DNA from: Isurus oxyrinchus
Lineage: Eukaryota
Direction of reading: 5' to 3'
Length of the DNA stretch: 64,000 bases
Assembly (NCBI GenBank): GCA_026770705.1
Contig: JANJGN010000034.1
Coordinates: 4,650,001-4,714,000, forward strand
Under the pieces are notes generated by a model. That model did not search any database, had not been told where the DNA came from, and saw only the letters and a list, made by a program, of their open reading frames with translations. Below, one piece after another: positions 160 through 60,485 of the stretch (position 1 is the stretch's first letter; every line of letters begins with the position of its first letter). Made by a program: the position numbers and the translations under genes.

Positions 160-195
160 AGATACAAAAGCTCAACAAAAATGTTGAAGCAATAG
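160..195 (+). CDS. 36-nt microexon, (E)IQKLNKNVEAI
   Basis: aattttcag|AGATACAAAAG...GCAATAG|gtgagc; phase 1-1. Confidence 0.85.
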   Translation, partial: RYKSSTKMLKQ

Positions 196-6100: not shown

Positions 6101-9100
6101 AATTACACGTTTGCCCAAGCTCTACTCCATTTTCCTGATGTTTGTGCACTCACTTAAATTTAAGCTCCCATTCGATCTTCTTCACAACTTACTTTCCTAT
6201 TTATCTCTGTGTCATCACCAAACTTTGCAACCATAACTTCGGTCTCTTCATCAAGGACTTTTTTAAAAATTCCAAAGAGCTGAGGATCTCATGACACACA
6301 ACTGGTTACAACCTGTCAACCAGGGAATAAGCATGCATGCCTCATCTTAGTTTAATACTTGCCAGACGATCTTCCATCTGTGCCACTCCGTTAACTCCTA
6401 ATCGTGGGATTTGATTTTCCACAGTAACCTTCGCTGTGGCATCTTATTACTGGCATTCTGGAAATGTTAGCAGAGTACATCGACTGTGGCTCCTTCAAAG
6501 AGCTCTAATAATTGGTGAACAATTATTTCCTTTGCTCAAAACCATGGTGAATCTCTTTAACTGCATAAAATTTCCCTCCACTAACATGTTTAGTAATTGA
6601 TGCCAGTTCCTGGTGTTCCCTCTCCCACCAGTTTTGAAGAAATTAGTTGGATTATCTTTTTTCAAATCTAATGAGTATTTCCAGGAATGCAAAGACGTTT
6701 GGAAAAAAAGAACTTAATCATTATATACAATATATAACAAGACAAGACAATTGAAGGTGTGGTTAAAATATAACAAATGCACGATCAGCATACTCTGGAA
6801 CTACTATGAAAAGTTCTGAGCTTAACACTTTATTAAACATATGTTTATCTCCGAGGCAATATAACATACATTTTCCAGAATGTTATGTAAAAAAACAAGG
6901 GGCTGAAATGTAAATAGAGAAGCCAAAAAATTGCAGTGAATATTCTGCAATTTACAAAGCTGAGGGTAGATTTGATCTGGTTTACCATCTATGAAGGCAG
7001 AAATACACTATATGCAGTTTCAGAGGGATTCAGGGCAAAGGGAATCATTTTATTATTTAAAAAAATGGAATATGCGATTTCATGAGGTACATTTGGAAAC
7101 CATGCCATACAGAAATTATTTTCGAAAGTTGACCGTCTCTTTCCCTACTGGCTGTCATTCATGATCAGCTGTTCAATTACAGTTGAAGTTGATGTAAGTT
7201 TGCCACACAAAAGTATTAATGGGCAGAGTGAAAATTCCAATATAGACAACTTTCTCTCGAATCAGCCATGAGCCCACTCAATAATGCAAAATTTTCGAAT
7301 AGTAACTAGCATAATCATATTTATATGTTTCAAGATATTTGAAGTATGATTCATTTGTTCTTTTTGTCGTTAGTGCTTTCTATAGTGAGGCTCAGTGACA
7401 ATTGTTGTTTGTTGCAACTAGGAAAACTAAAAGTCTATTTATATGTCTGCCTTGATTCGCAGAATTCTCAAGGAAAGGTAAGGATATGAATGTGATTGCA
7501 ATACAATCCTGAGGTAGAGATGCTAGTTGAGGAAAACCTAATCAGCATTCAAATATTATTGTAGATTGATACCTTGTGTGGCGAAAGGCAAAGACATTGA
7601 GATTTGCTCGGGAAGTATAAACACAAACCCACTCCCCCACCCCCGCACCACACAACCGGGTGTGTTATCATCCATATTGTCCCATTAGAGAAGGCAAATT
7701 TATCATCAATTCACTTTGTTATGCCTGACCTGCAGTTGAGGCGCAATTCCAATTATGTTTACATATTTTAATGTCTTGCTCGACACAAAACTAAGTAAAA
7801 GTCCAAATCCAGTACATTTCAAATGTTCTGATCTTTCGCAATGCTGCACAAATTACAACCGAATTGACCTGACACTGTCTGACATTATTGTTAACCAATA
7901 TTGTTCGTACCTGAGGTCCCTTGTGGATTTAATTGTCTAATATTTAATGTTCCAGAATTCTATTTTTTTTTAAAATTTAGGAAAACTAGTCTTCAATAAG
8001 ACATGCTCCGGCCTTCTGTTCGGTTAAATTTTACAATAAAGAAACAGAAAATAGTTCCTAAACACTGCTGGGCATCTTTAAACTGCGGAAATAAAGACAT
8101 GTATTTTTAAAATTGGAGCTAGGCAGTTCAGCAACGATTCCAGCAGTATTTGGTCCCAAAATTGAGAAGTGGAAATGTTGAAAGCCTCCAAAAAGCCATT
8201 GTCACCGCTATTTGCTTGGAATGGGAACACATGATTGAGCTATGTTTGTAGTGCAGGAGTGTCAAGTGACATTGAATCAAGTCAGGCAGTGGAAATTAAT
8301 TTCAATCTCGTCAATTATCTAATTATACGGAGGAATATGAAAGAAGAGCTGACAGTCTGAATCCAACTCTTAAACGGACAATATTTTTTTCCAATAATGT
8401 AGACATGACTGTTTTTCACCATTACTTCTGCTCTCCTGTGTGACCTATGTTTTCATTTTTTTCCTTGTTCTGGTAGTGCAGCATCTCATAGACACTTATT
8501 TCATTCTTTCTGCAAAGCTCATTAAAATCAAATTTCAATCATTGTGGATCAATAAAATGCAACGATACTGAAATAAGTCAGGGAAGTGGGAATATATGGA
8601 ATGCTCCTTCAGAATGCAAACGTAAACTCGATGGATAATCGACTCCTTTTGCACTGTAAAGGATCTCAGGTGCTTTGCAAACGTGTCAAAATTCAAGGTT
8701 TTAAATGAACCCTTTACGGCATGACACTTGATCATTATTTTTCCCCATTATTATTTTAGAACTCGAAGCAAAGATAAAGATTGAGGGTGAGAAGAAAAAA
8801 ACATGGCAAAATACGAAGCTCCCATTACATAAGCAAACCTTTCGGGCCTAAACCCTTCAATAAGGTTTTCCCTCATTGATGCGTTGTGCCGATTTCAACC
8901 CTAGTGAACACTATTTTCTCTTTGATTTAATATGTTACATACTCAGCCAGCACATATGAAAAAATGGGAAAAAGTATGGCAAGTGCATTGTGGCAATTGA
9001 ATAAACGGGATTTGTTATACCAGTCACCCAATAAATACTCTGTTTGCGATTGTGTTTTTTTTTGCACAAATAGAGCTGAGTAACTGGCAAAACATATGGT

Positions 9101-12100
9101 CCAGCCAATATTGTATTAATACAACTTTGCTATTTTGTACACTGATCCTGGACATTTCCTTAGGTCACGTCATATCTATGCCTTGTTGTTTAATTCTGAC
9201 CTGTGCTTTCAATAGCCTCCATGACCTTGCCTCCAACTCATAAACACTGCCATTTCTGCATTCACACTGGTTGCTATCCTTGAATTCTATACGTTTGGTA
9301 GTCACTTATATCGGTTGCTCCACCACTGTTGCTCATGGTTCAGCATCATGGGCTATCAGATTGCAATAATATCCCTGAGGGATAGCTTTAAGAAAATCCT
9401 AAAATCCAACATTGGAGACAGAACTTCTGGAATCCGGTCCTAACAGTTCTCTGTCCCCCTGTTTAAATGTTTATCTAACAAGCAATAGACACAAGTGTAT
9501 TAATGCATGCTTTGGTTATATATCTCTTTTTCCCTGCATTAAATTATAGATGGGCGGACACTGGAAAAAAATGCAGGTAATATGCTGAGATAAGTAATTT
9601 TGGTGTTATGTCTCGTATGTTGGTCAGGTATTATATCACAACGGTGCTCTATTCAGCTTTGAATTATTTTGGAAGAGGAAAATCCAGTGTAGCTAAGGGA
9701 AAATTGGCGTTCTGTCANNNNNNNNNNNNNNNNNNNNNNNNNNNNNNNNNNNNNNNNNNNNNNNNNNNNNNNNNNNNNNNNNNNNNNNNNNNNNNNNNNN
9801 NNNNNNNNNNNNNNNNNNNNNNNNNNNNNNNNNNNNNNNNNNNNNNNNNNNNNNNNNNNNNNNNNNNNNNNNNNNNNNGCTTTACTCTGCTATGTTTTCG
9901 TTCCAAACAAGGGGGCATACGGGGCCTCAGGTTAAAGAATCATTCGATTCATGACGCTTCTAAATGTGCTACACACTACAAGTATCTGACTAAAGTCATT
10001 TTCCTTAATCTAAACAACAAGTCTCTGGAGTCGAATTTGTAACAAAAACATAATGATTCAGAGTGCAGACATGAATCTGCTCGGTGAACGCTGATGTCAA
10101 TATATTCCGCCTCTCACCTTCAAAATCGTATGGATCGTTTCATGTCTCCTTTTCAAATTTGTAAACGGCTTGCATTAATGCAGGTGGGGAAAAATAACAA
10201 CGGTTGTGAAATTACTGCTGAAATGCAAATGATGCCTGTTCTTCCTCGATGCATTACAGAAATAGCAGCTTTGAAGAAAAACCTGAAAGATTCAGGTGAG
10301 CACAAAAATGAAATCGAAACTCCAGAGTGAAACAGGTGATTTCGCCCTGAAACTCCAGATCGTTTCTGCCGTTTAGTGCGATAAAGGTTGATATGTGAAC
10401 GAACCCACTTGCCCAAAATTGAACATTTGTGTAAATACATTCGGAAAAAAAAATAGGACGATATTTTGTAAAGGTATCAATCAAAAGTAAATTCTGCACG
10501 CAGAAGAAAGTCCCAGATTTACATTAGCTTCTGCCTATAAAATGTTTCACATCTACACTTCAAAAGAAATCAGGCTAAATTATTTTTAGTTATAATTTAA
10601 AATCACAAACTAACGAAAAGGTCTCAGTTCTTACTCAGATTTCTCTTTGCTCTGACAAACCTCCCCTTCAGTATTTTATTTTATATCTCCAGATAACACA
10701 ATCATAGTTCCTCTAAGTTCTACTCTTCTTGAGTAATTGGAGTCCAGTTATCATTCAATAAATCTACCTTATTGCAATACCTCCAATTTTAACAAATCCA
10801 CCCTAATGGGTTTTGAACAGAATTGAGCACAGCAAACAATTTATCTTCCAACGAGGAATATGCATAATTTAAGAATGAATTCCAATTCCTTATTTTGTTT
10901 TCAGTTATGTATCAAGAGCAGGTTAAATTCATCCCTGCGTAATTATAAGCGCAAACATGTTTTTCAAAGTTTAGAAGGCACAATGTATAACTGCTTCTCT
11001 AGTCTCACCATTCATTTGTTTATCCACTGGAGCCTCTGCGAATCCATATCTTTTCCACAGCTGTGGTTGCACATAATATATTAGCCGCTAGGACCATAAC
11101 TCCAGTCATTTTCGTGTTGTCCCTCAATGTCACAATGATTCGGCAACGGTTACTTAACATGGAATACCTGTCTCCTAAATAACCACGTCAGCAACATGTT
11201 TGCCTCCGTAACTTGTGCGGTATTTCCTTGAATTAGCTTAATCTATGTGAGCGTCGCTGTCAAGGTCAGTTTCTGTGGCCAATCTAATTGCCCTTCAGAA
11301 GCACATAGTGGGAAAATATTTGAACCCCTGTCATTCATATACTTACAGAGCTGGTAGGAATAGAATGCATGGTATTTTGCCAAACTACAATGAAGGGACA
11401 GCAATATATTCAAACCAGGATACCTTTCGCAATCTCTACTAATCTCCTTGCTGCATCAGGCTTGAATCTCTGTCAAGAATGCTTGGTCCGAGATCAGGAC
11501 ATGCCGGGCCCTCGGTACAGAGACTGTGGATGAACAAAATTTCATTTGGCTGTTCTTTTAAAATGTGCCATATATCTCCAATCTTGAGTTATCAGGACCT
11601 AATGAATGTGAACCGTTTAGCAGGCATAGCAGAAGAAGGAGGTCATTCTTTTCTCCTCGAGGGCAATGTGGTGGGCACTCATAAAGTTAATAGGGAAGGC
11701 AGAACCATCTCTCAAAAAGATAGATTTGGAATGGCCGGTTATCTGCTTCGCCCTCCTCTTGAATCATAGCCACCTGCTGCAGGGAAATTTCCACAGATAG
11801 ACCCTTAAAGCCTTATGGAGGTTGATCAGCGATGGCACCACTCAGCCTGAATGTTGTTGGGCATTGCTGACGATTTGGATTGATTTGATTTTTTGCTGTT
11901 ATTGCCATCAGTGCTTCTCCCATGTGTAGCATTGTTTCATTACATCAGCAAAGTCTGCAGGTTATAAACAAAAGGAAAATTCCTTGACTATGTTAACTTG
12001 ATGCCATAAAATGTCGTCGTGCTGCAAATGTTGATTTGCAGCAAATAAGAATATTATCCGGTTGCTTGGCCAGTAAGTGTGGAAAATCTCAGATTTTTGC

Positions 12101-21100: not shown

Positions 21101-21826
21101 ATTCTTATCATCTGCCCATAATTGCTCATCAGAAGTTAATGGCGAGCTGCCTTCTTGAGCAGTGGTCCATTTGGAGCTGGTGCTTCCAAGATTCTGTATA
21201 GGAGGGAGGACAGGAATCATAATTCCAATTCACGTTTGTGTACAGGTTGAACGCTAACTTGCTGGAGAGGGTGTTTCCATGTAGCAGCTGCCCTTTTTCC
21301 TTCTAGATGGTAGGCATCGTGGGTTTGTACTTCGCTGTTAGGGACCCTTGCTGAGTTACTGCAATGGAACTTGCAATTCATACACACTGTGGCAACTATG
21401 GGTCCCTGATGGATTAAGTGGATTTTGGTGGTGGTGTGTAGGGTGCCAATCAAACGGGATTATTTTGTCCTGCGTGGTACAGAGCTTCTAGAGAGTTGAT
21501 GGTGCTATACTCATCCAGGCAACTGCACTTAACTAATGTGTTTCCAAGACCAACGAAAAAAAATTGGGTGAAGGGTGCTGGCATAGTGGTATTATCTCCT
21601 GACCAAGAAAATTCAGCTCCAGGGTAATTAATTTCGAACACCTGAACGTGTCCCACAACAGCATGCAAAATCCAACACCGTCTCCTGCAAATTGATCTCC
21701 AAGCTAAAATAGATATCAAATTAATTGCTAAACATTGTTGGAACTACATGTTTGACGGTTGAAGTTATTATTATTTCATTATATTGCAGAATGTGTACTT
21801 CAGTGGCTGTGCCAGCATCCTGTGCA

Positions 21827-21860
<34 letters not shown>

Positions 21861-48800: not shown

Positions 48801-51800
48801 CTAGGAAGGAGCTGTCGAATTAACCTTAATCAGTAGTTGCGTTGCCTAATTTAATGGCATAATTCTGCCAATGTGCATCTTCCTTGGAGTGGATGAGTGA
48901 CTAACGTGATTGGGGGGCTTCTTTTCCTGGTTAACCTCGAGCAGTTTGAGGGTTTTTGAAGATGTACTCACTGTACAGGCAGACACTATTCCATCACATG
49001 TCCAATCGTGCCTTGCTGATGGTGCATGTGTTTTTTGGAGTCGAGAGATGATTTTGTCGCTGCCTAACTTCCCAAACCTGACTTGATCTTGCATAAGCAT
49101 TTTTAATAAGGATCGACAATTTAAAGTTATGAAAAATTTAACTCCCAGTATGTTAAGAATAGGGGATTCTGCGTCGCTGATTTCATTGAATGCCACGGAG
49201 AGATCCCTAAATTCTTTGTTGTAGGGACCAGTTATTTCCTGACTTTTGTTTTACTTCCAACTTTGCAGTTCCAGCCTCAATGTTGTACAGGTCAGATTGG
49301 ATATGGAAATGGATTGCTTCACTATCTGATGAGTCATGTGGTTCACTGTGCAATCCACAGTGAACATCAAGGCTTCTGACGATTTGTGGTCACAATTATA
49401 CTCATTGTATCAGCTGGATCAATTTGGTTGGAGGGCGTTTGTGTGGGCGGGAACAGTCAGTTGGGTCAGAATGAAAGTCCAGTCTGTCTTGTATTTGGCT
49501 TGGGGGCAGTTGGGTCTTGTAAGTGTCTATTGAGAGTGATTTGGGAGTTCGACTGGTGGACAGGGGTGCAGGGCTTAGTCGTGGACCTAACACACATCCC
49601 AAAGAAGAAACAAAAATATAACTTTCGCCCTTTCAAAAAAAGCAACTTACCACTGCTCCCGATTTCATACCGCACAGCAAATTTGACTTCCATCTTGCAA
49701 CTGTCCTTTCCATTCCATTCGTTCATATTTGTTGTGAGATAATTTATCAAATGTAGGGCACAACTCCAGAGGGAGTTCATGAACAAATTGATTTTGTTGG
49801 TTATGCACATGAACAATTGAAAATGTAATATACGTTTGCTGCACTTGTTAATAAAACTTGTATCATCTCAGGCACAGAGCAAAATACTAAGGAAACTAAA
49901 TTTCTATAGACAGAGGCGCGTCCTCAACTTGGATTGTTTCAAATTCTGGGTGCCACTCTTCTGAAGGATGTGAGGGCATTAGATATCATTCATAAGGCGA
50001 TTTCACAAGAATGTTTCCAATAATGCTGGGCTTCATTTGTGTAGAAAGCTTACAGAAGTTTGGATTGTTTTTTTTTGAGGATGAGAAGATTGAAAGTCGA
50101 TGTCATACAGATATTCAAGGCTCTGTAGGGAAAACTAGTTTCATTGATGGAAGTATCAAGAAGAGCACAACACTGATGTAATTTAATTGGCAAATGAAGC
50201 AAAGCCATCCTGAGGTTAATCATTTTTCCTAAGATCTGTGGTTAAGATGTAAAATACACTGCCTCAGGTCTTCGTGGAGGAGTGGCCTAGTGAGGCACTA
50301 ATGAAGGAATTGAATTAATTTCTGAAAATAATGATTGTGCAGTGCCATGGTGAGAAGATGGGAGAAGATGCACAAGGTACCTTTGGAGATACAACACACA
50401 AACAAAGGAAAGTTTGGTTTTTCCTGGTGATGTATGCATTGTATAATTCTTTGTGACGGTATTAATTAAACTTATTCAAGATTTGATGTTTTCACAGGGT
50501 GAAAGATGGGCCTTATAGAGCATTGAAGTAGAATGACCCACAGTTAGGAAAGGCAACTATACGTGCTTCTGCATTTGATAAACAATGGTAGGACTGAAAG
50601 CTGGAAAAAATAGAGTTGTGGGCATAAACAGGTTTAGAGATGATCTGGATATATGATACTTTTTCTGTATGCAGCACAAGACAAATTTGACACATGCTAC
50701 ATTGGGTTTGTAATTTATTTGATATGTTCGTTGGTGTATATAAAGCGGGGCTCCTTTCTGATAACATTAAGTTCTTGCATGTATCTAGCCCCTACACCGT
50801 CACAAAGTATCCCATGTCACTTCGCAGAAGAATTATCAAAATGTTATTCAAAGCAACATAATGAGATAAGCTGCTTAATAACTCCTGCGAAAAAGCCACT
50901 TTGACCATGTTTCTCAATTAAGGTAACTATATAAATAAATGTTGAACTGAAACCAATCGTTCACTACATTTATATTTGCTACAAAACATAATTTTTTTAA
51001 AAAAGCCTCTAAAACATCAATGGCAAAAAAAGTTGTCTGGGCCCATGCCTGCAATTTCCTTTCAACAGGAAAACTGATATCAAAAGCAACTGAATGCAGC
51101 AGGATTGAATATCAATAAACTTTTAATGCAAACGAGTTCCTGAACAATGCAAGACAGATGTCTTCATATTGACACCATAAAACATGTAAGCATTATTATT
51201 GTGATTTGTCACCAACTCTATTAATTACGACAGTCACAAAAAACGTTCTGGTGGCCAACGTTTCTTTTGTCTACACATGACAGTTTTCTTCATGAGCTAC
51301 CTATCAATTTTCCTAATTGGGACGCCACCCATCTGTTTGTGCACTACCAGATTCTGCGTGCTCCAGTTACACAAATGTGCCACAATTCTGTTCGTTCCAC
51401 TTTACCACCTTTTTTTTCATGTAGGCTTTTCATATTTTATATTCAAAGGCTCATTATTTCTTCATTTTCAGCGATCGAGAAACTGAAGGAGAAGGTGAAG
51501 TATCTCGGTGGGTGAAGCATATTGCATTCATGCTCCTTTCGAAACCAGAAATGCTGCTGTCTTGGTTTTTGTGTCCATGATGAATTTTTGTAGTGAAACA
51601 CGTGTTAAGAATATTGTTTTCAGCTATTTTTCCGTAAAATGAATTATATTGTTATGTTACTATTCAAAAATATGAGATCCATGCATAAATTTCGAAATAG
51701 TTGTGCAAATATTATTACTGTAATGTGATATTTTCATATTTGAAATGGTGAATCAGTGTAGGCATTAAGCATAGTAATGGTGCTTCCGTCAACAAGAAAT

Positions 51801-52690
51801 GCCTCTGTGGGCCAGATGCTCCTCCATAAATTTAAGCAAGCAATCAAGACACTTATTACTCAGTGCAGTACTGTGGGAGGGATTCACTGTGGTTCTTCCA
51901 TGTCCCATCCTTTCTTCTGACGTGGATACATACGAATTAAAGTCATTATTTTTCAGGGGAGCAAGGAAGAACCCTTAGTGTCATGCATATATTTTTACTT
52001 GCACAGCGGGCCTGGACACAGAATACGTGGTAACTCATCTCAAGGCTGTGTAATTCAGCGCCCAGTGCTTCAACTGCTACCTGGTTTCCAGCATGAAATT
52101 ATTTCCGAGATTACAAATGCATTCAAATAGCTTTAAAATGTTTTGAAATGTGCAGAGGTTCTGAAAGGCAGAGCGATTAAAGTATGTCTATCTTTCTGGG
52201 TTATTTCGTTTGCACATTAGTAATTTGTTGTTCCTTCCTACTTCCTTCTCACTTTCCTTCTCGCGGCCTTCTTGAATATATCTCATTCCTAATCTATTTG
52301 ATAACTTGCACCTGCCCTTCAAATATTGAGCAACATCATACGTCACCCACAGGACATATATATCACCAAAGGGTCACTTGAGTAATCCTAATGCCTGTAT
52401 AATTATTCCTTTTAAATTATGTCTCCAATAGATCAAAAATTAAGTATGAAGGACACTGGTAAGGATTTATTGAAGATGATTCTTTGCTGGAACACCGGAT
52501 AATTGCATCGAAAATAATTGCATTTCACCGAGATGTCAACATTTAACTGTACAATTTATGTAGCACCACCCCCCACCCCCCACAACTCTTTTTTCTGTCT
52601 CTACATTTCTCTCACTTTCTCTGGCTTTATATCTTCCTATCTATATATCTATCTATCTCTAAGATCTCTCTATCCATCTATCTATCACTT

Positions 52691-52759
<69 letters not shown>

Positions 52760-55700
52760 TTATCCTATGGGTTAAAGCTGATCAGCAACTTGGAGAACTC
52801 CCCTCTGCCTCAGTAAGTCTTAGATATTGTAGACAAATATATATTAATATTTTTGTTGAAATTATAACAAAGCCATATTCCCTTCATGGAACTTGAGAAG
52901 GCTGCTGCAATTCTTTATGGGCAGGAACATAAATCCATCAGAATTTTACTGAGATATAGGCAAATAAATAGCGGATGCTGGAAATGCCAAAAAAAATCAC
53001 AAACTACCTGAAGAAAACGCAGCAGGTGTGGTAGCATATGCATAGAGGTGTAGAGTTAACATTGTGAGTCCAAATGAGCCTTCAACAGTCAATTCGCCGA
53101 ACCCACCCACACTAGGGCCATCTGCCACTTGCTTGTCCTGCTTGCTCCCTTTAATGTCACCATTAACACATTCCTTATATAACATCACCATCGTCAACAC
53201 AAATTTGTCCTTTTGTCTATGAAGTCTTTGGCGATCGCTCTTCTTTGCCTCTGCCTATGATTGGTTCTCTATCCAGCTCTACCTGTCCCAACGATCCTAA
53301 ACCAGCTTATATTGCACCTCATTTCTCTATTTCCTTCGGTCTGATAAAGAGTCATACGGAGTCGAAACCTTAAAAGTATTCCTCTCCACAGATGCTGTCA
53401 GGCCTTCTGAGTTTTTCCAACAGTTTTTATTTTTGTTTTGGATTTCCAGTATCCACAGTGTTTTGTTTTTACAGTATTACATGTCTGCACTCACATGGAT
53501 GGACGAATTCCTTCAATAAATTTCAGAACTAAACAATTTATCGAACTATCTCACATGTGTAAGAACAGACATCATTTGTTCAACATTCTGTCACATTGAT
53601 GTGCGTAATGAAACATAGTGGCCTTCCCCTGTAGCTAACAACAAGAAACTATTTGTTCTGTGTTTAATTTAATCCCTATGTATCCAGTTCGTTATTTCAA
53701 TATTCAGAGTGACTCGATATTTGATTTTACCATACCGTGTGCTGTATTTCACATTAAACCAGCCATCAATGCATTTTGATGTCACAACATGCAACGCAAA
53801 ATTATACTTTTAATCCCTAGAATGCCAACAATTAAACAACATCGTTGAAGCTAAAGGTACTTGAATTTAATGTTTGTATTTTGTTGCTGCTCAAATGTTA
53901 ACTTCAGGTTCCTTAATTCTTCGAAGTATCAGAGTGGGTTAATTTGTCAACAGAGTTCTTTATTTCTAGAGGAATAGAATTATAATAATTAAGCTACCTA
54001 AACGCTTCAGCATTGCTGTTGGCAAAGAATAATTAAAAGGTAATAGGCGGTAAGATCTCCCGTAGTTGGAGTCATGGTGAGCTAAAAGCAAGATTGTTGT
54101 TGTTGTTAGAGTCAATAATATTCATGTGCCAGATGTTAGATACATCAATTGCTAATGGTAGTGATATAGTCTCATAAAACCTCAGTTATTTCATACAACG
54201 CCTCCACTTCCACATTCAGTGATGTTTGCAGTGTTGTGTACCATCAGGATCTTGAAGATAACGAAGTACTACATGCCTGCATGTAACAAGCATGGGGAAT
54301 ATTCAGGCATGCACTAATTATTCTCAGGTCACAATTGCATATTCTCAGTGCCAGAAAATGAACATCATCAAGAGGAGAGAATCAGTGCCCGTCTAAACAA
54401 ATTGTATGGCCATTGCTGAATCCCTCTTCGCCAAAATCCTCTGTTGATTAAAGAAAAAAAGAGGCAAGCGTGTAAATGCTATGACTGAATCGAAAAAGCA
54501 TAGGCCAGAGATTCAGCTGCAATTAATTAAATTTCTGATTTTTGAAAGCCATTTTTTCTTTGACGAGCCAAAATTCAGTAGCATGCTGGAATGATGTTTT
54601 AGCTTTATGAACGATTGCATCTCCAACGTCACTTAAGACACTCGATGCCAATAAGGGTTAAAGAGTCATCATTATTGGCATTTTAAGCAATTATTTATTA
54701 ATTTACTGGCATTACCGCTGGCACACAGTGGTAGGAGTATGTGCTATCTAGATGGTACACTTCAGAAAAAAAATATATTAAACCCCCTTCAGCTGAAACA
54801 AATGAACTCACACGCTTTATAATCTGGATGAAAACGGGGAATAGAAATATGAGAAAGCTGCCTCCAGAAATCTCTATCCGAAGCCACACAAAGTTCCACC
54901 TTTTACTTATTTAACAGTTCCTTCAGTAAACCTGCGTTAAAGTCCTGGAAGCAATACCAAAACTGGATTGCAGCGCTGTCTCCACAAGTTCGATAGCAAA
55001 ATTCACAAGGCAGCTCCCTTCCTTACATTACAATTACGGGCAAACAACACATGTTGGACTTGCTAATAGGTCCAGTATAAAGAAATGATAAAAATAATAA
55101 AATAAACACAGTAGGTGGCTGTAACTTAATACTTTCTTAGGTCATTGTGCTCTCTTTAAAAATATGCAGAGGACAAAGATTGATTTAGAGGGAGGCTGCG
55201 TGGGAATTCCGACTTACAAGGGTGATGGCAGGACTGAAAAGTGATAGCTAACACGGGAAAAAAAATAAACAGCTGTCAATGTATTGTCTAAAAAAGTCGA
55301 GATATAACAGATTTGGAGACGTTGGGGACCGGAAGTGGGGGGCAGTGTTGGAGGGGTGGGGATAACTCTAAAGTGTGTAGCAGATTATGAATCAGCTCGA
55401 TAAAATAGCAGTATATAGGAGCCTTCTGCTTGTGCAGAACCCAAACTGAAGGGCTAGAAATTTAAGGCAAATAATATTAAAAATCTAAACTGAAAGCTGG
55501 TGCAATCGAGGAGTGAATGATATTTCTGATATGATACTAGACAAATGGTAACATTTTGGAAATTTCTAAGAAAACTGGCTAGTTGACGTGAATAGAGAAA
55601 TGCTGGAGCTAACTAGACAAAAGTTGTGAAATGAACGGTAGTATATTTTTGTATTGTGTGATGAATTATGCAGAAATGAGGTTAGTTTTATCCATAAATA

Positions 55701-58700
55701 CAAACATAGCAATCATGTGCCGACGTCTAACAATTATTATTATTTCCAAGATCTTAACCTCATCGACAAGAAATGCAGATTGCTGTTATGGGCTGTAGAA
55801 TAATGACATTTTCAAGACAGAATCACCTCATGGCTTCAATGAGTAGTTCAAATAATTCCAGTTTACACTTTCTTCCTGCAATTGCACGTTATGTATCTTC
55901 CCTTTGAATGTTAATGTTGAAACGGTTTCTACTGCCCTCTGCATCGCACGTCGTACAAACTTTTGGATCTAAAGCGTTTCCTGATCTCAACTTTGCCTTT
56001 TCAGTCGAATTGATGTAATTTTTATCCATTCGTTACCAACACTTTTGCCAATGTAACTGATGTTTTCCTATATAATTAGACTAAAATGATTATCACACTA
56101 TATATGCAGTAATCCGTTCTCTACACAGAAAGAGCCCACGTTGCCTCACATCTCCCAAAACAGATCTCTCACCTTTTGCAGTATCCTGCTAAATTCCAAT
56201 GCCTTGCTACCAAGCCTACTACATCCCTCCGAACTTGTGGCGTCCATAACCACAGCCTGTCATTTACGTGATGCTGAAAGTTTGATTTTAATGTGAAAGC
56301 GCAGAGGTCTTATATTTTCTCAGCTGCTCACTTTAAATGGAAGACACTAGTGTCCAGAACACAAAGTGAGAAATTTGTAAGCAAACTGAGAACACTTAAG
56401 TCAAATATCGTTAACATAACGAATATTCTTCGTTAGACAAAGCATTAGCAAAGAAAGAAAAAGGTAAGCTTCAACTTATTGTTAAAAAAATAGTTTTGCT
56501 ATTGCATCTTTGGCTAACGTTAAAACACCTTATGAATTTATTCACGGTATTCAACAGTAGTCGATAGGTCCAATGTACTTCGCAATTTTTGAATGACTTA
56601 ATTACGTGGCTGTTCTTCCTAGCTTGCAAGAATAAATAAATTCCCATCGTTACTTTAAATGCTTACCCTCAATGTTTACAATCTGCATGTCATGCTATGA
56701 TAGAGAACACTTTGCTGAACCGCACGGCTACAAAAATGACCAAACATGCTGTTAAGAAATTGCAATGTAACACAAAAAGCCTTGATAACAAATTGGGTTG
56801 ATTCGGGGGTTGTGGGTGTGTGTCGAGCTCAGGAGGAATAGTCGTTGAGGGAAACTAGCCCATCCAGAGTTAGGCAAACTCTGCTTAAATTAATTTTGGA
56901 CAATTGCGTTTGGATAAGGGCAAAACGCATCAGGATAAAGATATTGCCTATGGAAGGAATTTTGCACAAATTCATCAGAACCAATACGGTCTAAAACCTT
57001 TCGATGAAATTCCTGATTTAATTACAAATTTGCTGAATGAATGGAAGTTATCACTCCTCATAAAATAATTGGATATCATCTGCTTTATTCTACGTTTTAT
57101 GGGGAAAACAGCCTTTTTCAATTGTCTGCTTCAGACATTTTCTCCTCATTTAAGAGATACCACTTTTACGAACAGCTAAAGTTAGTCTATCTATTTCTCC
57201 ATGTGGCGATTTTTTTGTGGCTGCTGGCGCCGTTGAGATTTTCCGGTCCTTTTGAAGTCAATGAAGTTCTGATCATTTTCGTTTTCCAGTCTGGCTCTTA
57301 AAATTCCATTTATGTCTGTCGTTCACATTTTGCACAGCGTGTTTCACTTGTGACCTTCTTCGAATTTCCCAAAGTGCGACGCCAAAGACTGATATGACTC
57401 AGTTTTTGGAGTTTTCAAACCTGAATTAATGAATAGTGTTACTACTGCAGGCTGATCTTATGTCTAAAGCCTAAGTGAATTTCTGATCTTTTCGTCCAAT
57501 TGTGACAATACTGAGCACAAGTTGGCAGATCAGCTTTGTTACAATTATAATTTTTAGAGCAGAGAGGGATTTCCCTGATTTACGGAGACAAAAATAATGG
57601 ATATGTGTCATAACTTTCAAGGTTTATTTACATACTTTGAATGCTTATTAACAATTACTTAATAACAGCTTATAGATGAAGTTAGGGCGGCCATATAGCA
57701 ATCTGCCAAACTGAAATATTTTCATTGCTGCACCAGAATTGGAGAAACAGCGAAGGATTCAAATGGAATTTGGTGAGTTGAAAGACGTCGTTGTTCAGAA
57801 CCCAGAAGCGAACTTATACATTTGCCGACGATAAAACGTATCTCTTCCTCAAGGAAGCATATCGTTACACTCTCGAGAGCGCTTATGGACCACGTTTGAT
57901 CGTTTATTTTCGTCTGAATTTGAACACATTTGCAATAAAGAACGACAAAGATCACACAGCAGAGACACATCATTGCTTAACTTATAGTAACGCAGATCTC
58001 ATTCGCTAGAGATATATATTGGGCTTTCCAGCAGGAACAATTGTCTCCCAGGTTCAAATCCAGTCGGTGAAGACCATCCAACTGGTGTTAAGATGTGTAG
58101 CTGTTGGAATATGGTGTAATCATCCACAACAATAGATTGGCTCATGAGACATCAAATGACCTAGGACAGACTCCACTAATGCATCAACTGAGCACTATCA
58201 ATTAAATTTGACAGCAGGGCAGGTCAGGAGAAACTGGACATATGAGCAAAATTTTGCAAATTAGTTTTTTTTTAAGGCGTGCCTTTAAGAAGCAGAGATA
58301 GGCATACATGTTTGGATACAAAATTATAAAACTCAAGTCCTAAGGGGATGAAGGCTCTGTCACCAATTTGCAACAATAAAAAAAAACCTGATATCCAGGA
58401 TTTGAAAGAAAATGCTGCAGGGCTGAAATCAATTGATACTTTCTAAGCAGAGGAGATGATTTTTTAGGGAGACACAAATCTGCAATTTTTATATAATAAT
58501 TTGTTCTGTATTCGAGTTTCTGCATGGTAACATGGAGCTGTAGTCTCCCAGGTTGTGTGAAAGGTCTGTGGCGGGAAATACGATATGCAATGCTGATTGG
58601 CAATATATCGACCATACAATTCGTAGACGCTGCACAGAAAATCAGAAAACTAACATTTTTTTTTTACATGTCAGTTCACACAAGATACTATTAATCCAAA

Positions 58701-60485
58701 TGTGCTGCTTATCGTTCCCACAGTAATTTGATGTATCTCTCACAGCAACAGTCATATTCATTGAATAATAGACATTCCCAACAGTGAAGAAGGACATCCG
58801 GTCCATCAGATGCACACTGGCTGTAAAAGAATCATCTAGCCCTTTCACGCTTTCAAGATGTTGGCCACAGCCTTGTAATTTTTCTGCCACTTCAGTTGCA
58901 CATACATTTGCATAATGGTATCACGGTTTCTTACTCTACCACCATTTCAGATATTAATGTTCCAGATCCCCCCCCCCCCCCCCCCAACACCCCAAAATCC
59001 CGCCTTTCACCACCACCCCCCGCCCCGGCACCCTCCCTCCCCACCCTCTGTGTCCAGGTTAATATGCATTGGGATGTACTCCTGGGCTCCGGCTTCTCAC
59101 CATAAATATATAACCCAGTGCACAGATCGGTCAAACAAGAAGGAGACAGTCTTACAGCCACTCTACATTGACTTCTTATAAATTCATGCACTTCAGTTAA
59201 ATCTCTCCTCTGCAACTATCAAAGAAAGCAGTACTAAACTTTTTTTTTTTCCCCAGCAATTACTCTTACTACATTCTCGAGCATATTAGCCTTATTGTGA
59301 CAGTATGGCTGGCAAAATGTCAACCAGATATGCAGCCGAGGACTAACTCGTTATTTATAGAATTCATCCATAGCCTTCTCACCCGGATTTGTTATGCCTA
59401 GTCTAAACAAAGAAAATAATTCAATTACAAATTCTTTCTGGGCTGTGGCGCCACTGCCTTAGATAAAAAAAAATATGCTCAAAAAGACCAAGCTGACTTT
59501 TCAGGGAACAATCACATTCCCGTCCAAACCTCTGAAATGAATTGGAACATTCAAAATTTACAAATCAAACCCCGGAGACTCCTTTGCTACATAATCGTGG
59601 AAGAAAACTAAATTATGTAAAATAGGTAGCAGTGCAGCTGCTATTCTGATATATTGTGATCTTGCAGCAAGCAATCAATTCGCTCTGCAATTGATCGGAT
59701 GAAAATTTGAAGTCTGAATTTACGAGGGCACGAGAGTGAAAATAAGGTGCTATGAATGTCTAAATCCTGAAACATCGCTGGTGAATGATAAGAAGTTCAG
59801 AACAGATACTCGCGAAGTTGGAAATGCATGTAAATCAAGAAAAATCATGCATTGCTTGCTAGGGCCACTTGACGTCTCGAAGCTGTGAACATCCAATGGG
59901 GTAAACGTTATAAGAATTGCAAGGATGGGACCAGAACCTAACTGTCATAACTGTCATGGAAGCCTGAGCAGTCTACGTCACCTGTCACTGTAAATAATGT
60001 TACCCACGAATGTGTTGCAAGCAGCTATAATTACAAGTGGTTGCAAAAGTCGTGAGTGAGAGGACTATTTTTCTGAATGTGGTGCAGGTGAGACCAAGCA
60101 CCCTTGGGTATGATGAAGGAGATTCTGAACAACATAATTGTCGCTGCAAATTCAGAGCATGATCTCATAGGAAGTGCATGAGACACAGGACAAATGATGA
60201 ATTTGAGGCCAAGTTGGAGCGGTGTAAGAGGGATGATAAATATATAAATGCATTATGCTGATAACATGTAATCTCTTGTGGATGATACAGAGAGGAAACG
60301 TGAGGTATACTTAATGGTCTACTCCTCTTATCTAAATTAAAAGTAATTATTTGAAAACCCCTAAATAATTTTCAACGCCGGTGCTGGTCCTCCTTTGACA
60401 TGCTCTGTGAATGTGTTTATCAAATGAAAATATTTAAATGTTTTTTTGTTGCTTGCAGAAGAAAACTTGAGCTCGAAAAGCAAAG
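160..60485 (+). CDS. Multi-exon host gene (partial, both ends outside window) encoding a long heptad-repeat coiled coil from alternating 36/27-nt microexons
   Basis: 18 AG...GT-bounded exons of exactly 36 nt (8) or 27 nt (10), all phase 1-1. Joined translation has no stop: EIQKLNKNVEAI-ELEAKIKIE-EIAALKKNLKDS-EEHLRKKNK-EIEEVNVLFAEC-NSKMKEKLQ-EIESLKRKFGDA-EKSFHEKEI-EKGLNQKNL-ESKLKTQQT-EAEKLNSDLEDC-ELKFSNNQK-AIEKLKEKVKYL-DQKLSMKDT-ECQQLNNIVEAK-DKALAKKEK-ELEKQRRIQMEF-EENLSSKSK. Confidence 0.85.
430..2950 (+). mobile_element. Degraded CR1-type LINE (ORF2 RT remnant to 3' end); boundaries approximate
   Basis: YRPVILTSIVGKLLE at ~1672 and LFKICINDLDVGAKCKISKYTYDKKLGG at ~1994 match CR1 RT motifs (YRPVSLTS..GK, FADDTKLGG); many stops and frameshifts. 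Confidence 0.8.
2198..2238. repeat. (GA)n microsatellite
   Basis: Direct reading. Confidence 0.9.
3180..4040 (+). mobile_element. Degraded CR1 3' fragment
   Basis: Decayed post-RT CR1 pattern (ECVGLQK..., KYEVISF) followed by CR1-like 3' sequence. Confidence 0.55.
5560..6710 (-). mobile_element. Degraded CR1 fragment
   Basis: Reverse strand near 6208-6232 reads VAKFGDDT (FADDT motif); ggacacccagatccctctg is typical of CR1 in antisense. Confidence 0.65.
7463..7477 (+). CDS. Candidate 15-nt microexon (E)FSRK
   Basis: ccttgattcgcag|AATTCTCAAGGAAAG|gtaagg; strong donor and frame-preserving, but does not fit the 36/27 period. Confidence 0.35.
8760..8786 (+). CDS. 27-nt microexon, ELEAKIKIE
   Basis: ccccattattattttag|AACTCGAAGC...ATTGAGG|gtgaga. 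Confidence 0.8.
9718..9878. other. Assembly gap (161 N)
   Basis: Run of n. Confidence 1.
10260..10295 (+). CDS. 36-nt microexon, EIAALKKNLKDS
   Basis: cttcctcgatgcattacag|AAATAGCAGC...GATTCAG|gtgagc. Confidence 0.85.
14587..14613 (+). CDS. 27-nt microexon, EEHLRKKNK
   Basis: tattttaaaacag|AAGAACATC...AATAAAG|gtaacc. Confidence 0.8.
18090..18890 (-). mobile_element. Degraded Penelope-like element fragment (RT C-terminal part)
   Basis: YACLFIGYVEHSL, SDDAMFHNSVSDTYSFFNNRGF and RVPLVL align by eye to the PLE ORF at 34708-36603. Confidence 0.8.
20445..20480 (+). CDS. 36-nt microexon, EIEEVNVLFAEC
   Basis: gttttctttttcag|AAATAGAAG...GAATGCA|gtaagc. Confidence 0.85.
21080..21530 (-). mobile_element. 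3' fragment of an abundant CR1/L2-group LINE
   Basis: Recognisably similar to copies at ~11250, ~40900, ~48570-49390 and ~62950-63940 (-) and ~44870-46140, ~54050-55060 (+). Confidence 0.6.
21830..21875. repeat. (TA)n/(TAGA)n microsatellite
   Basis: Direct reading. Confidence 0.9.
23426..23452 (+). CDS. 27-nt microexon, NSKMKEKLQ
   Basis: cccatttattattag|ATTCAAAGATG...CTACAAG|gtattg. Confidence 0.8.
24139..24177 (-). ncRNA. Minimal type I hammerhead ribozyme motif (PLE pseudo-LTR)
   Basis: Exact reverse complement of 25144-25182. Confidence 0.7.
25144..25182 (+). ncRNA. Minimal type I hammerhead ribozyme motif (PLE pseudo-LTR)
   Basis: AGUU-CUGUCGA-A-GGGUC(AUGAG)GACUC-GAAAC-GUC^AACU: stem I AGUU/AACU, 5-bp stem II, palindromic ACGU stem III, GUC cleavage triplet. 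Confidence 0.72.
25560..27250 (-). mobile_element. Old, highly diverged Penelope-like RT relic (different subfamily); boundaries approximate
   Basis: Reverse strand 26210-26266 = ACIFIANMEPAAFQSYSGS, and upstream LNLNIFTFKATCLVQVKRVALG; cf. ACLFMGYVEHSLLQSYSGP and LTLNNFSFNSSHFLQIKGVAMG in the young ORF. Confidence 0.7.
28950..28985 (+). CDS. 36-nt microexon, EIESLKRKFGDA
   Basis: gttgtttgaaataag|AAATAGAATC...GATGCAG|gttagt; weaker acceptor but fits period and motif. Confidence 0.78.
29750..30200 (-). mobile_element. Degraded tRNA-derived SINE (DeuSINE-like)
   Basis: Resembles antisense of copies at ~32500-32860 and ~51780-52200; recognised by eye only. Confidence 0.45.
31250..32350 (+). 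mobile_element. Degraded CR1 LINE
   Basis: NYRSVSLRSVVGEIF (~31668) and DDGEPVDVVYLGF (~31844) match CR1 RT motifs. Confidence 0.75.
32500..32860 (+). mobile_element. Degraded SINE (DeuSINE-like)
   Basis: gtgctgtcggaaagtgctgt...atcccttggcgatattttgaa...gtaaatcgtatttgatattcctga pattern. Confidence 0.45.
32905..32931 (+). CDS. 27-nt microexon, EKSFHEKEI
   Basis: tcaacttgctttag|AAAAATCTTT...GAAATTG|gtaagt. Confidence 0.85.
34036..34074 (-). ncRNA. Minimal hammerhead ribozyme motif
   Basis: Identical to the other three young copies. Confidence 0.7.
34708..36603 (-). pseudogene. Penelope-like reverse transcriptase + GIY-YIG endonuclease ORF, 5'-truncated, with premature stop in the YIG motif
   Basis: IKPADKGGAVV, FYLLPKIHK, GRPIVS, DIQSLYTSIP, GVAMG, RYIDD, FLDL, then LVYCIRCSQCGLPYI*; GGA>TGA relative to the right-arm copy. 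Confidence 0.93.
36813..38093 (+). pseudogene. Second (inverted) partial PLE RT/endonuclease copy with stops and frameshifts
   Basis: Reverse-complement match to the left arm; YIDD is followed by TAG at ~37038; intact YIGETKR at ~37837. Confidence 0.9.
38476..38514 (+). ncRNA. Minimal hammerhead ribozyme motif
   Basis: agttctgtcgaagggtcatgaggactcgaaacgtcaact. Confidence 0.72.
40548..40556 (+). CDS. Candidate 9-nt microexon, EMF
   Basis: tattgttttatattcag|AAATGTTTG|gtaagc; 9+27=36 restores the 63-nt period. Confidence 0.5.
40681..40770. repeat. (CCT)4(TTC)~25 trinucleotide repeat
   Basis: Direct reading. Confidence 0.95.
42227..42253 (+). CDS. 27-nt microexon, EKGLNQKNL
   Basis: tttttgtttttcatag|AGAAAGGCC...AATCTTG|gtaatt. 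Confidence 0.82.
43480..43692 (-). mobile_element. tRNA-derived SINE 5' part
   Basis: ggagtgggaattgaacccaaggtc...gagtgtcaacaact reads as an antisense tRNA-like head (B-box GGTTCAATTCC). Confidence 0.55.
44114..44140 (+). CDS. 27-nt microexon, ESKLKTQQT
   Basis: gttgctacttatag|AAAGCAAGT...CAAACAG|gtatgc. Confidence 0.82.
44870..46140 (+). mobile_element. Degraded CR1/L2-group LINE interrupted by a SINE
   Basis: FPDDC (FADDC-like) at ~45458; similar to other copies in the window. Confidence 0.55.
45088..45340 (+). mobile_element. V-SINE-like element nested in the LINE
   Basis: tttgcatg...gtgtgggttt...ggttaggttgatt...aaattgccc...gtgtgccctgtgatg resembles the vertebrate V-domain SINE core and tail. 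Confidence 0.6.
46344..46379 (+). CDS. 36-nt microexon, EAEKLNSDLEDC
   Basis: ccattcttccacag|AAGCTGAAAA...GATTGTG|gtaagt. Confidence 0.88.
47409..47435 (+). CDS. 27-nt microexon, ELKFSNNQK
   Basis: atgtttttcttag|AATTAAAGT...CAAAAGG|gtaagg. Confidence 0.82.
48570..49390 (-). mobile_element. Degraded CR1/L2-group LINE 3' part
   Basis: Reverse strand near 49345-49368 = MFTVDCTV (FADDC motif relic). Confidence 0.6.
49740..50450 (+). mobile_element. Degraded CR1 3' fragment
   Basis: cctcaacttggattgtttcaaattctgggtgcc (RPQL..C.QFW-like) followed by CR1 3' UTR-like sequence. Confidence 0.55.
51472..51507 (+). CDS. 36-nt microexon, AIEKLKEKVKYL
   Basis: tttcttcattttcag|CGATCGAGA...TATCTCG|gtgggt. 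Confidence 0.85.
51780..52200 (+). mobile_element. Degraded SINE (DeuSINE-like)
   Basis: cagtgcagtactgtgggagg...gaggttctgaaaggc pattern shared with 32500-32860. Confidence 0.45.
52432..52458 (+). CDS. 27-nt microexon, DQKLSMKDT
   Basis: atgtctccaatag|ATCAAAAAT...GACACTG|gtaagg. Confidence 0.85.
52694..52758. repeat. (CA)n(TA)n microsatellite
   Basis: Direct reading. Confidence 0.95.
52960..53472. mobile_element. Older short inverted PLE-terminus element C with a degenerate hammerhead (53341-53372)
   Basis: Both ends resemble PLE termini in opposite orientation (gcggatgctggaaat... / ...ggatttccagtatccacag); ctgataaagagtcatacggagtcgaaacc; no clear TSD. Confidence 0.7.
53821..53856 (+). CDS. 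36-nt microexon, ECQQLNNIVEAK
   Basis: acttttaatccctag|AATGCCAAC...GCTAAAG|gtactt. Confidence 0.82.
56437..56463 (+). CDS. 27-nt microexon, DKALAKKEK
   Basis: atattcttcgttag|ACAAAGCAT...GAAAAAG|gtaagc. Confidence 0.85.
57737..57772 (+). CDS. 36-nt microexon, ELEKQRRIQMEF
   Basis: ttttcattgctgcaccag|AATTGGAGA...GAATTTG|gtgagt. Confidence 0.85.
60459..60485 (+). CDS. 27-nt microexon, EENLSSKSK
   Basis: ttttttgttgcttgcag|AAGAAAACT...AGCAAAG|gtaaat. Confidence 0.85.

Follow-up and report, generated by a model that had tools for sequence, protein, structure and literature searches.

Eighteen microexons of 36 or 27 nucleotides (nt) were located on the forward strand of a 64,000-nt stretch of the Isurus oxyrinchus genome (contig JANJGN010000034.1; G000:C34:4650001-4714000; genome 4.98 Gb), referred to here as the window. 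The exons lie within an array of about 811 kb and are probably spliced with about 170-220 similar exons into a message that is predicted to encode a long coiled-coil rod with a C-terminal B30.2 domain. Exon coordinates in the window are given in window numbering, and signed positions refer to the window start.

A sequence-only reading of the window had proposed 18 AG/GT-flanked exons of 36 or 27 nt, all in phase 1-1 and alternating in size save for one 27-27-27 run. All of this was confirmed. On the + strand, 18/18 segments were found between positions 160 and 60485, with AG before and GT after each. Eight exons are 36 nt and ten are 27 nt long, and the alternation is broken only at 32905-32931, 42227-42253 and 44114-44140. 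In each exon, the first two bases finish the codon begun by the preceding exon, and the last base, a G throughout, is the first of the following codon. The introns between them are 924-9295 nt long. When spliced, the exons give 558 nt; the offset-2 frame comprises 185 codons with 0 stops (about 186 stop-free residues had been claimed), and the other frames hold 22 and 14 stops. The joined peptide is proline-free. Splice sites were rated with a simple home-made acceptor + donor score, on which every size estimate rests. The exons are listed below with splice sites, score (acceptor+donor) and match to the profile of their size class, built from exons outside the window.

160..195 (+), 36-nt microexon IQKLNKNVEAI, cag/gtgagc, score 1.9+9.8; second-best match to the outside-built 36-nt profile (E 1.9e-4)
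8760..8786 (+), 27-nt microexon LEAKIKIE, tag/gtgaga, score 3.6+9.0; 27-nt profile match
10260..10295 (+), 36-nt microexon IAALKKNLKDS, cag/gtgagc, score 4.6+12.0; best 36-nt profile match (E 4.7e-8)
14587..14613 (+), 27-nt microexon EHLRKKNK, cag/gtaacc, score -1.3+6.8, acceptor weak; profile match (E 0.17)
20445..20480 (+), 36-nt microexon IEEVNVLFAEC, cag/gtaagc, score 6.4+5.2; profile match
23426..23452 (+), 27-nt microexon SKMKEKLQ, tag/gtattg, score 1.8+4.2; profile match
28950..28985 (+), 36-nt microexon IESLKRKFGDA, aag/gttagt, score -6.4+7.9, weakest acceptor; sixth-best 36-nt profile match
32905..32931 (+), 27-nt microexon KSFHEKEI, tag/gtaagt, score 2.3+8.4, first in the 27-27-27 run; profile match
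42227..42253 (+), 27-nt microexon KGLNQKNL, tag/gtaatt, score 4.1+4.3; second-best 27-nt profile match
44114..44140 (+), 27-nt microexon SKLKTQQT, tag/gtatgc, score 1.0+8.6; profile match
46344..46379 (+), 36-nt microexon AEKLNSDLEDC, cag/gtaagt, score 4.1+9.5; profile match (E 0.01)
47409..47435 (+), 27-nt microexon LKFSNNQK, tag/gtaagg, score -0.8+9.5; profile match
51472..51507 (+), 36-nt microexon IEKLKEKVKYL, cag/gtgggt, score 5.1+7.2; profile match (E 0.016)
52432..52458 (+), 27-nt microexon QKLSMKDT, tag/gtaagg, score -1.3+10.0; profile match
53821..53856 (+), 36-nt microexon CQQLNNIVEAK, tag/gtactt, score 0.0+5.2; weak profile match (E 28)
56437..56463 (+), 27-nt microexon KALAKKEK, tag/gtaagc, score -2.6+10.9; profile match
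57737..57772 (+), 36-nt microexon LEKQRRIQMEF, cag/gtgagt, score 2.8+8.8; profile match
60459..60485 (+), 27-nt microexon ENLSSKSK, cag/gtaaat, score 6.8+7.7; best 27-nt profile match

Two weak points of the set are the splice scores below 8 in 4/18 exons (14587, 23426, 28950 and 53821) and the poor acceptor of exon 28950. For 36-nt exons missing from the 27-27-27 run, the only candidate was a weak profile match at 42349-42386 (E 3.5), which was rejected; it holds an in-frame TGA and has no suitably spaced GT.

The 18 segments bear the marks of real coding exons, and chance is excluded by shuffle, strand and profile controls. At a score above 8 and without composition filter, eight 27-nt and six 36-nt segments lie on the + strand of the window, compared to two of each size on the - strand. 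The background at other lengths from 12 to 150 nt was estimated by eye at about 2 segments each. One shared frame is open in all 14 high-scoring + strand segments, which are rich in K, E and L; all four on the - strand hold a stop in that frame. A shuffled-sequence check, named with the original proposal, was passed: dinucleotide shuffles of the window (n=100) yielded a mean of 1.57 and a maximum of 4 open segments, compared to 14 observed. Profiles built from exons outside the window recovered 8/8 36-nt exons, six of them as the top six matches and two (57737, E 3.8; 53821, E 28) at noise level. The corresponding 27-nt profile placed 10/10 window exons of this size among its 12 best matches.

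The proposal that a hidden gene for a heptad coiled coil crosses the window is supported by a hydrophobic period of 3.5 residues in the joined peptide. Its power was 2.67, with a shuffle mean of 0.18 and maximum of 1.30 (reached by 0/2000 shuffles). Core positions had been assigned to residues 2, 5, 9, 12, 16 and 19 of each 21-residue unit. They hold for the first 84 residues, where two core slots are filled 11/12 and 5/12, and past the 27-27-27 run the heptad register is shifted by +4, as would be expected if two 12-residue exons had been lost.

Within size classes, identity among window exons was 0.47, compared to 0.27-0.28 for introns beyond 20 nt (random level 0.26), and the third codon position was the least conserved (0.35-0.36). 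Eighteen paralogous Cys-class exons showed an exon identity of 0.67, compared to 0.28-0.36 for intron sequence beyond 20 nt; by codon position, the values were 0.70 (first), 0.76 (second) and 0.56 (third).

To either side of the window, 700 kb upstream and 300 kb downstream were examined (1.064 Mb in total). Same-strand, same-phase microexons continue through both flanks, and the array extends over G000:C34:4005537-4817027, from ~644 kb upstream to ~167 kb downstream of the window start. The 18 exons and about 186 residues of the earlier reading are a small part of this array: the window covers 8% of the array length, 79-87% along it, and its exons are about a tenth of the array exons. Between -650 and +168 kb, at a score above 10 and without composition filter, 78, 46 and 23 segments of 36, 27 and 21 nt were counted on the + strand versus 9, 9 and 10 on the - strand. 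The shared frame is open in 74/78, 43/46 and 22/23 of the + strand segments, respectively, across 818 kb. With composition filter, the + versus - counts in the three enriched size classes were 39 versus 11, 90 versus 7 and 59 versus 3. No comparable enrichment was seen at other lengths from 12 to 99 nt, for which + and - counts differ at most ~2-fold. At a score above 8, 214 open segments on the + strand and 42 on the - strand leave an excess of ~172. Because 14/18 window exons pass this threshold, the array is estimated to hold 170-220 exons, which would correspond to ~1700-2200 rod residues.

Along the array, a section of 36/27 exons is followed by 21-nt exons at about -580 to -467 kb and then by 36/27 exons again, which at -98 to -25 kb are arranged as a unit of four exons (42 residues) in which a core position is Cys. 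The 21-nt section (G000:C34:4070000-4183000; e.g. LKKKEE, LRKCQE) has the one-heptad exon size of BG genes. A 7.3-kb tandem duplication (99.2% identical) at G000:C34:4625605-4640371 (-24395 to -9629) doubles a 27+36-nt exon pair and is either very recent array growth or an assembly artefact. A 36-nt 'exon' reading DPLNVEA (-334.8 and +220.8 kb) was discarded as a marker of gene starts; it belongs to a dispersed repeat with 69% identity over 1.2 kb.

The 3' end of the array was found among the longer open reading frames (ORFs). When 59 + strand ORFs of at least 130 amino acids (aa) between -300 and +364 kb were compared with Pfam, one matched, to SPRY, at +166455 to +167024 (53.4 bits, cut-off 26.3; E 3.4e-14). 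The Pfam PRY model did not match this exon. Its acceptor, ttttacag, is in phase with the array, its reading frame closes with TAA, and tblastn found no second copy in the 1.064 Mb. On the contig, the exon spans C34:4816507-4817027. The best solved sequence match was the B30.2 domain of BTN3A1 (E 4.7e-20, residues 1-157), followed by TRIM58, BTN2A2, TRIM21 and pyrin. An AlphaFold model of the exon reached a predicted local distance difference test score (pLDDT) of 86.5 and a predicted template modelling score (pTM) of 0.84. Compared with the whole PRY-SPRY domains of TRIM10, TRIM7, TRIM15 and BTN3A1, it gave template modelling (TM) scores of 0.73-0.80. The array ends in a B30.2 (PRY/SPRY) exon, the fold of which is confirmed by this predicted model. 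Of the two designs offered by the sequence-only reading, a butyrophilin/BG cytoplasmic tail is borne out as the nearest by the terminal B30.2 exon and its closest solved sequence, BTN3A1. A lectin-like stalk is not, since the last exon is a B30.2 exon with a stop codon and no Lectin_C match was obtained among these 59 and a further 108 upstream ORFs.

At the other end, a 111-nt phase 1-1 exon followed by exons of 36, 27, 36 and 27 nt forms a 5' module at -644463 to -628034. The 111-nt exon occupies C34:4005537-4005647. A five-exon module of identical order lies at +209457 to +232340, after the B30.2 exon, from which the next array is separated by ~40 kb without microexons. Joined, the two modules are 59% identical over 78 residues, ungapped (E 2e-28). 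The DNA between their exons aligns only at dispersed repeats, and the introns do not align. No third copy of the module was found in 1.064 Mb. A search of the shark's own genome with the 111-nt exon peptide returned only itself, and a protein-database search with its 42-aa contiguous translation gave no match. Strand, phase, the single 5' module and the single B30.2 exon suggest that -644 to +167 kb is one gene (gene A), transcribed as one unit, and that the next array is a tandem paralogue (gene B). The 3' end is firm, and the 5' end was placed by collinearity with the paralogue. Gene B starts at G000:C34:4859457 (+209457) and extends beyond +363 kb; the B30.2 exon at C34:6395830 probably belongs to it, and the gene would then be ~1.5 Mb long.

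For domains further upstream, + strand ORFs of at least 75 aa were taken from the 55.5 kb before the 111-nt exon of gene A and from the whole 42 kb between the gene A B30.2 exon and the gene B 111-nt exon. None of these 108 ORFs matched any Pfam family, so that there is no sign of Ig, RING or B-box exons upstream; an Ig exon would escape if it were split into frames below 75 aa or located beyond 55 kb upstream, and the same ORF-length limits apply to RING/B-box and short lectin exons. Ig families were equally absent from the 58 other ORFs of at least 130 aa across the array. Tblastx of the two upstream regions returned only the 111-nt and 36-nt exons and stop-containing matches. One look-alike pair of first exons, both starting with MLH, was rejected for lack of flanking homology. 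The most 5' conserved exon opens with only ~8 hydrophobic residues, and no transmembrane exon was identified in the scans upstream of the 5' modules. Of the partners expected in the flanks, B30.2 was thus found, and Ig-V (0/108 ORFs), transmembrane and lectin exons were not.

Relatives of the B30.2 exon were searched for with HMMER in 1.84 billion representatives, which gave 2469 matches at E <=0.001. Among ten matches looked up, the five closest database-named single-domain ones are cartilaginous-fish models, from little skate, small-spotted catshark, chimaera and electric ray. Automatic names of the relatives are TRIM69-like, TRIM39-like, TRIM58, A33-like and nuclear-pore anchor-like. A word search added models from cloudy catshark (61% identity) and bamboo shark (51%), and a search of the word-indexed database for longer relatives of the exon gave 1 distant match only. 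B30.2 identity was 61% to the cloudy catshark, 51% to the bamboo-shark, 49-50% to the skate and 43% to catshark models. All relatives with at least 43% identity and an organism name are shark, ray or chimaera, which fits the earlier guess of a chondrichthyan gene. Annotation does miss the rod: in the two closest shark models, nothing but the B30.2 exon is present. Accessions among the relatives are:

XP_055510696, skate, 'TRIM69-like'
XP_042192744, chimaera, 'nuclear-pore anchor-like', 1697 aa
XP_038668997, catshark
XP_069775384-90, electric ray, 'A33-like'

Pfam matched only SPRY in the relatives P0152, P0010, P0026 and P0076, and neither Ig nor RING nor B-box. Of five coil-B30.2 relatives inspected, two, P0152 from skate (295 aa) and P0076 from chimaera (1697 aa), have a hydrophobic start of ~17 residues followed directly by a rod. 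In ray and chimaera, the predicted isoforms are set apart by cassettes of exactly 6, 9 or 7 residues. The last five microexons plus B30.2 align with P0152 at 47% over 229 columns, and the first 41 residues of the alignment, which comprise four consecutive microexons, are ungapped (20/41 identical). Local alignment of the terminal microexons to P0152 covered 35 residues with a score of 98, compared to a shuffle mean of 36 and maximum of 67 (0/2000 shuffles reached 98). The last four microexons plus the B30.2 exon are homologous to this contiguous skate model. This is the sole cross-species support for the splice order, and it concerns the 3' end, not the window exons. With the cartilaginous-fish coil plus B30.2 models the gene shares the closest B30.2 (36-61% identity), a rod directly before B30.2 and the lack of Ig, RING and B-box. 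It differs from them in size, since they are mostly 221-372 aa or B30.2 alone, and their automatic names are misleading. By its closest B30.2 domains and the heptad rod in front of them, the gene appears to belong with this unnamed cartilaginous-fish family.

In the proposed mechanism, the exons would be spliced into one message encoding an alpha-helical coiled-coil rod of ~1700-2200 residues with a B30.2 head. The rise in a coiled coil is ~0.15 nm per residue, and the rod, if wholly coiled coil, would be roughly 250-330 nm long. All introns are in phase 1, so any exon could be skipped or duplicated in frame. The register is maintained by a 36+27 pair, which encodes three heptads (21 residues), and is shifted by a single exon; this would account for the strict alternation and for the stutter at the 27-27-27 run. 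Rod length would be set by splicing and by unequal crossing-over. By analogy with butyrophilin/BG cytoplasmic tails (PMC4046983, PMC8813856), the rod would dimerise and hold the B30.2 ligand-binding head at a set distance. It is perhaps membrane-anchored, since two annotated relatives begin with a hydrophobic segment. Its function would most likely be in innate immune sensing.

Several points weigh against a single giant gene of this kind. Scans upstream of both 5' modules revealed no shared ATG-containing phase-1 first exon. With the first coding exon not located, the N-terminus and any membrane anchor are guesses from two relatives, and 3/5 coil-B30.2 relatives have no clear hydrophobic start. 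That one transcript covers 811 kb is deduced from the common strand and phase and from the presence of one 5' and one 3' module. The joined window peptide (185 residues), which had been suggested as a query, scored 28.1 bits by BLASTP against 159 retrieved proteins, with shuffled queries scoring up to 31.6. It thus did not match the relatives' rods above shuffles, and local alignment to the skate rod gave a marginal match (score 77, reached by 1/500 shuffles). The isoforms of the relatives are automatic predictions. Contigs of four small public runs, picked by species label, cover window:42000-61000 essentially only at the repeat at ~53100-53470 and contain no splice joints. Finally, the closest annotated relative, P0152, is only 295 aa long, with ~100 rod residues. 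Either transcripts use few exons, or the P0152 model is incomplete.

The short rod of P0152 would fit an array that is of exon origin but gives no giant message, because a small exon subset is used, several promoters are active, or the exons are decaying relics. The weak splice scores of 4/18 window exons and the fast turnover indicated by the 7.3-kb duplication point in the same direction. However, a shared open frame is kept in nearly all high-scoring segments of all three size classes across 818 kb, third codon positions are the least conserved, and introns are at random identity while exons are not. The span also holds a single 5' module and a single B30.2 exon. We therefore regard this alternative as unlikely and retain the long rod with a B30.2 head.

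Long heptad tails on microexons are otherwise known from chicken BG genes, in which they consist of 13-36 exons of 21 (sometimes 24) nt per gene; heptad microexons are a hallmark of BTN/BG (PMC4046983). Chicken BG genes, including the BG10/zipper-protein type, resemble the shark array in a long cytoplasmic coiled coil on tiny symmetric heptad exons. Exon number likewise varies between copies, and tandem families grow and shrink by duplication (PMC4046983, PMC8813856). BG genes have signal, Ig-V and transmembrane exons and no B30.2, whereas here B30.2 ends the gene and no Ig exon was found. BG units are of 21/24 nt; here, the 36+27 pair prevails, with an estimated 170-220 exons over ~811 kb. 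Butyrophilins have two Ig domains, a transmembrane segment and a few heptads followed by B30.2 (PMC4046983, PMC12841164). BTN3A1 and BTN2A1 resemble the shark gene in a heptad region followed by B30.2 (BTN3A1 E 4.7e-20, TM 0.78). The predicted rod differs from theirs in that it would run to hundreds of heptads, and no ectodomain exon came to light among the 108 ORFs.

The gene might be a true butyrophilin or BG gene whose upstream signal, Ig-V (and Ig-C) and transmembrane exons were missed. Its B30.2 is nearest to BTN3A1 among solved structures, heptad microexons are typical of that family, and the most 5' conserved exon opens with a short hydrophobic stretch. An Ig-V exon is normally an open frame of more than 100 aa, and none of the 108 upstream + strand ORFs of at least 75 aa matched Pfam. 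Moreover, P0152 and P0076 start directly with the hydrophobic segment and have no Ig domain. On this evidence, a missed ectodomain is improbable.

TRIM proteins have a RING and a B-box, and their coiled coil is moderately long and encoded by ordinary exons (PMC8813856). TRIM7, TRIM10, TRIM15 and TRIM21 share the order of coiled coil and B30.2, and the B30.2 model is closest in fold to TRIM structures. The relatives' automatic names (TRIM69-like, TRIM39-like, TRIM58) also speak for a TRIM gene with a hugely expanded coiled coil. Unlike in TRIMs, no RING, B-box or other zinc-finger family was found among the 59 + 108 ORFs or in the four relatives P0152, P0010, P0026 and P0076, which makes a TRIM gene very improbable. 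The stalk of CD23, a type II lectin, has 21-residue repeats on 63-nt exons. It resembles the array in its 21-residue three-heptad unit; the unit is split into 36+27 here, and the gene ends in B30.2. A CD23-like type II C-type lectin stalk, or a chance pattern in A-rich sequence, is hardly credible: the repeat resembles CD23 and the sequence is AT-rich, but the terminal exon of the array is B30.2 and closes with a stop codon, no Lectin_C was found among the ORFs, the - strand is without signal, and chance is already refuted by the shuffles.

The feature is real and appears to be a new take on the BG/butyrophilin-tail design, with its function proposed by analogy. No paper on microexon-built coil-B30.2 genes of cartilaginous fishes was found in a literature search that covered sources outside subscription journals and supplements. 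If these arrays are expressed as predicted, cartilaginous fishes would carry a family among the most exon-rich genes known. Its rods would greatly exceed all BG and butyrophilin tails in length, and its units would keep frame and heptad register by construction. It could then serve as a natural system for studying the encoding and evolution of coiled-coil length and its possible regulation by splicing, and would bear on the origin of MHC-linked BG/BTN heptad tails (MHC, major histocompatibility complex) and on the ligand of the 'orphan' B30.2 head. Under standard annotation, such genes are left as a single B30.2 exon or as misnamed 'TRIM-like' pieces. TRIM/BTN gene counts in shark genomes and gene-free 'deserts' of hundreds of kb need re-reading.

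A bolder and rather doubtful extension of the rod-plus-B30.2 reading is a splice-programmable molecular ruler. Here, ~200 symmetric microexons would act as a cassette library for rods of chosen length, 36+27 pairs keeping and single exons shifting the register, and rod length would set the reach of B30.2 from its anchor. This would be a cartilaginous-fish innate-immune design without described counterpart, ancestral or parallel to BG/butyrophilin tails.

The closest B30.2 paralogues in this genome are four exons on the same contig:

C34, 6.396 Mb (+), B30.2 exon, 59% identity
C34, 7.496 Mb (+), B30.2 exon, 58% identity
C34, 2.709 Mb (-), B30.2 exon, 40% identity
C34, 3.474 Mb (-), B30.2 exon, 44% identity

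About 140 more distant copies lie mostly on C21. Two of the four C34 exons are preceded by the same type of microexon array, on the matching strand. The 100 kb upstream of the 6.396-Mb exon hold 11 segments of 27 nt and 14 of 36 nt on its own (+) strand, versus 1 and 0 on the other. For the 3.474-Mb exon, the numbers are 13 (27 nt) and 6 (36 nt) on its own (-) strand versus 0 and 6. No MHC linkage of C34 was seen: 31/31 MHC class I matches are on C21 or C16 and 0 on C34. Dense B30.2 clusters (27-40% identity) at G000:C21:82-118 Mb lie beside MHC class I matches at ~93.6-100.3 Mb and are presumably the TRIM/BTN-rich MHC region of the genome.

Some further features of the window are of minor importance. 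One candidate extra exon was not counted:

9550..9576 (+), 27-nt segment GRTLEKNA, tag/gtaata, score 0.5+6.9 (total 7.4), same open frame; weak profile match (E 13)

Just 3' of it, a 161-N masked run occupies 9718-9878, in the interval from exon 8760-8786 to exon 10260-10295. GC content is 0.35-0.43 in the AT-rich window, with one GC-rich block at 34000-38000 (GC 0.50-0.52). This block is a dispersed repeat and a source of false 36-nt 'exon' candidates, and its long ORFs matched no Pfam family. Copies lie at about -335.8, +219.8, -688, -632 and -620 kb, with ~66-72% identity over <=1.2 kb. AG/GA microsatellites at 2224-2267 and 61537-61586 yield spurious AG..GT segments in the raw scan. A high-copy repeat occupies 53100-53472, where the contigs of the four small public runs have many loose ends and their word depth sums to thousands.

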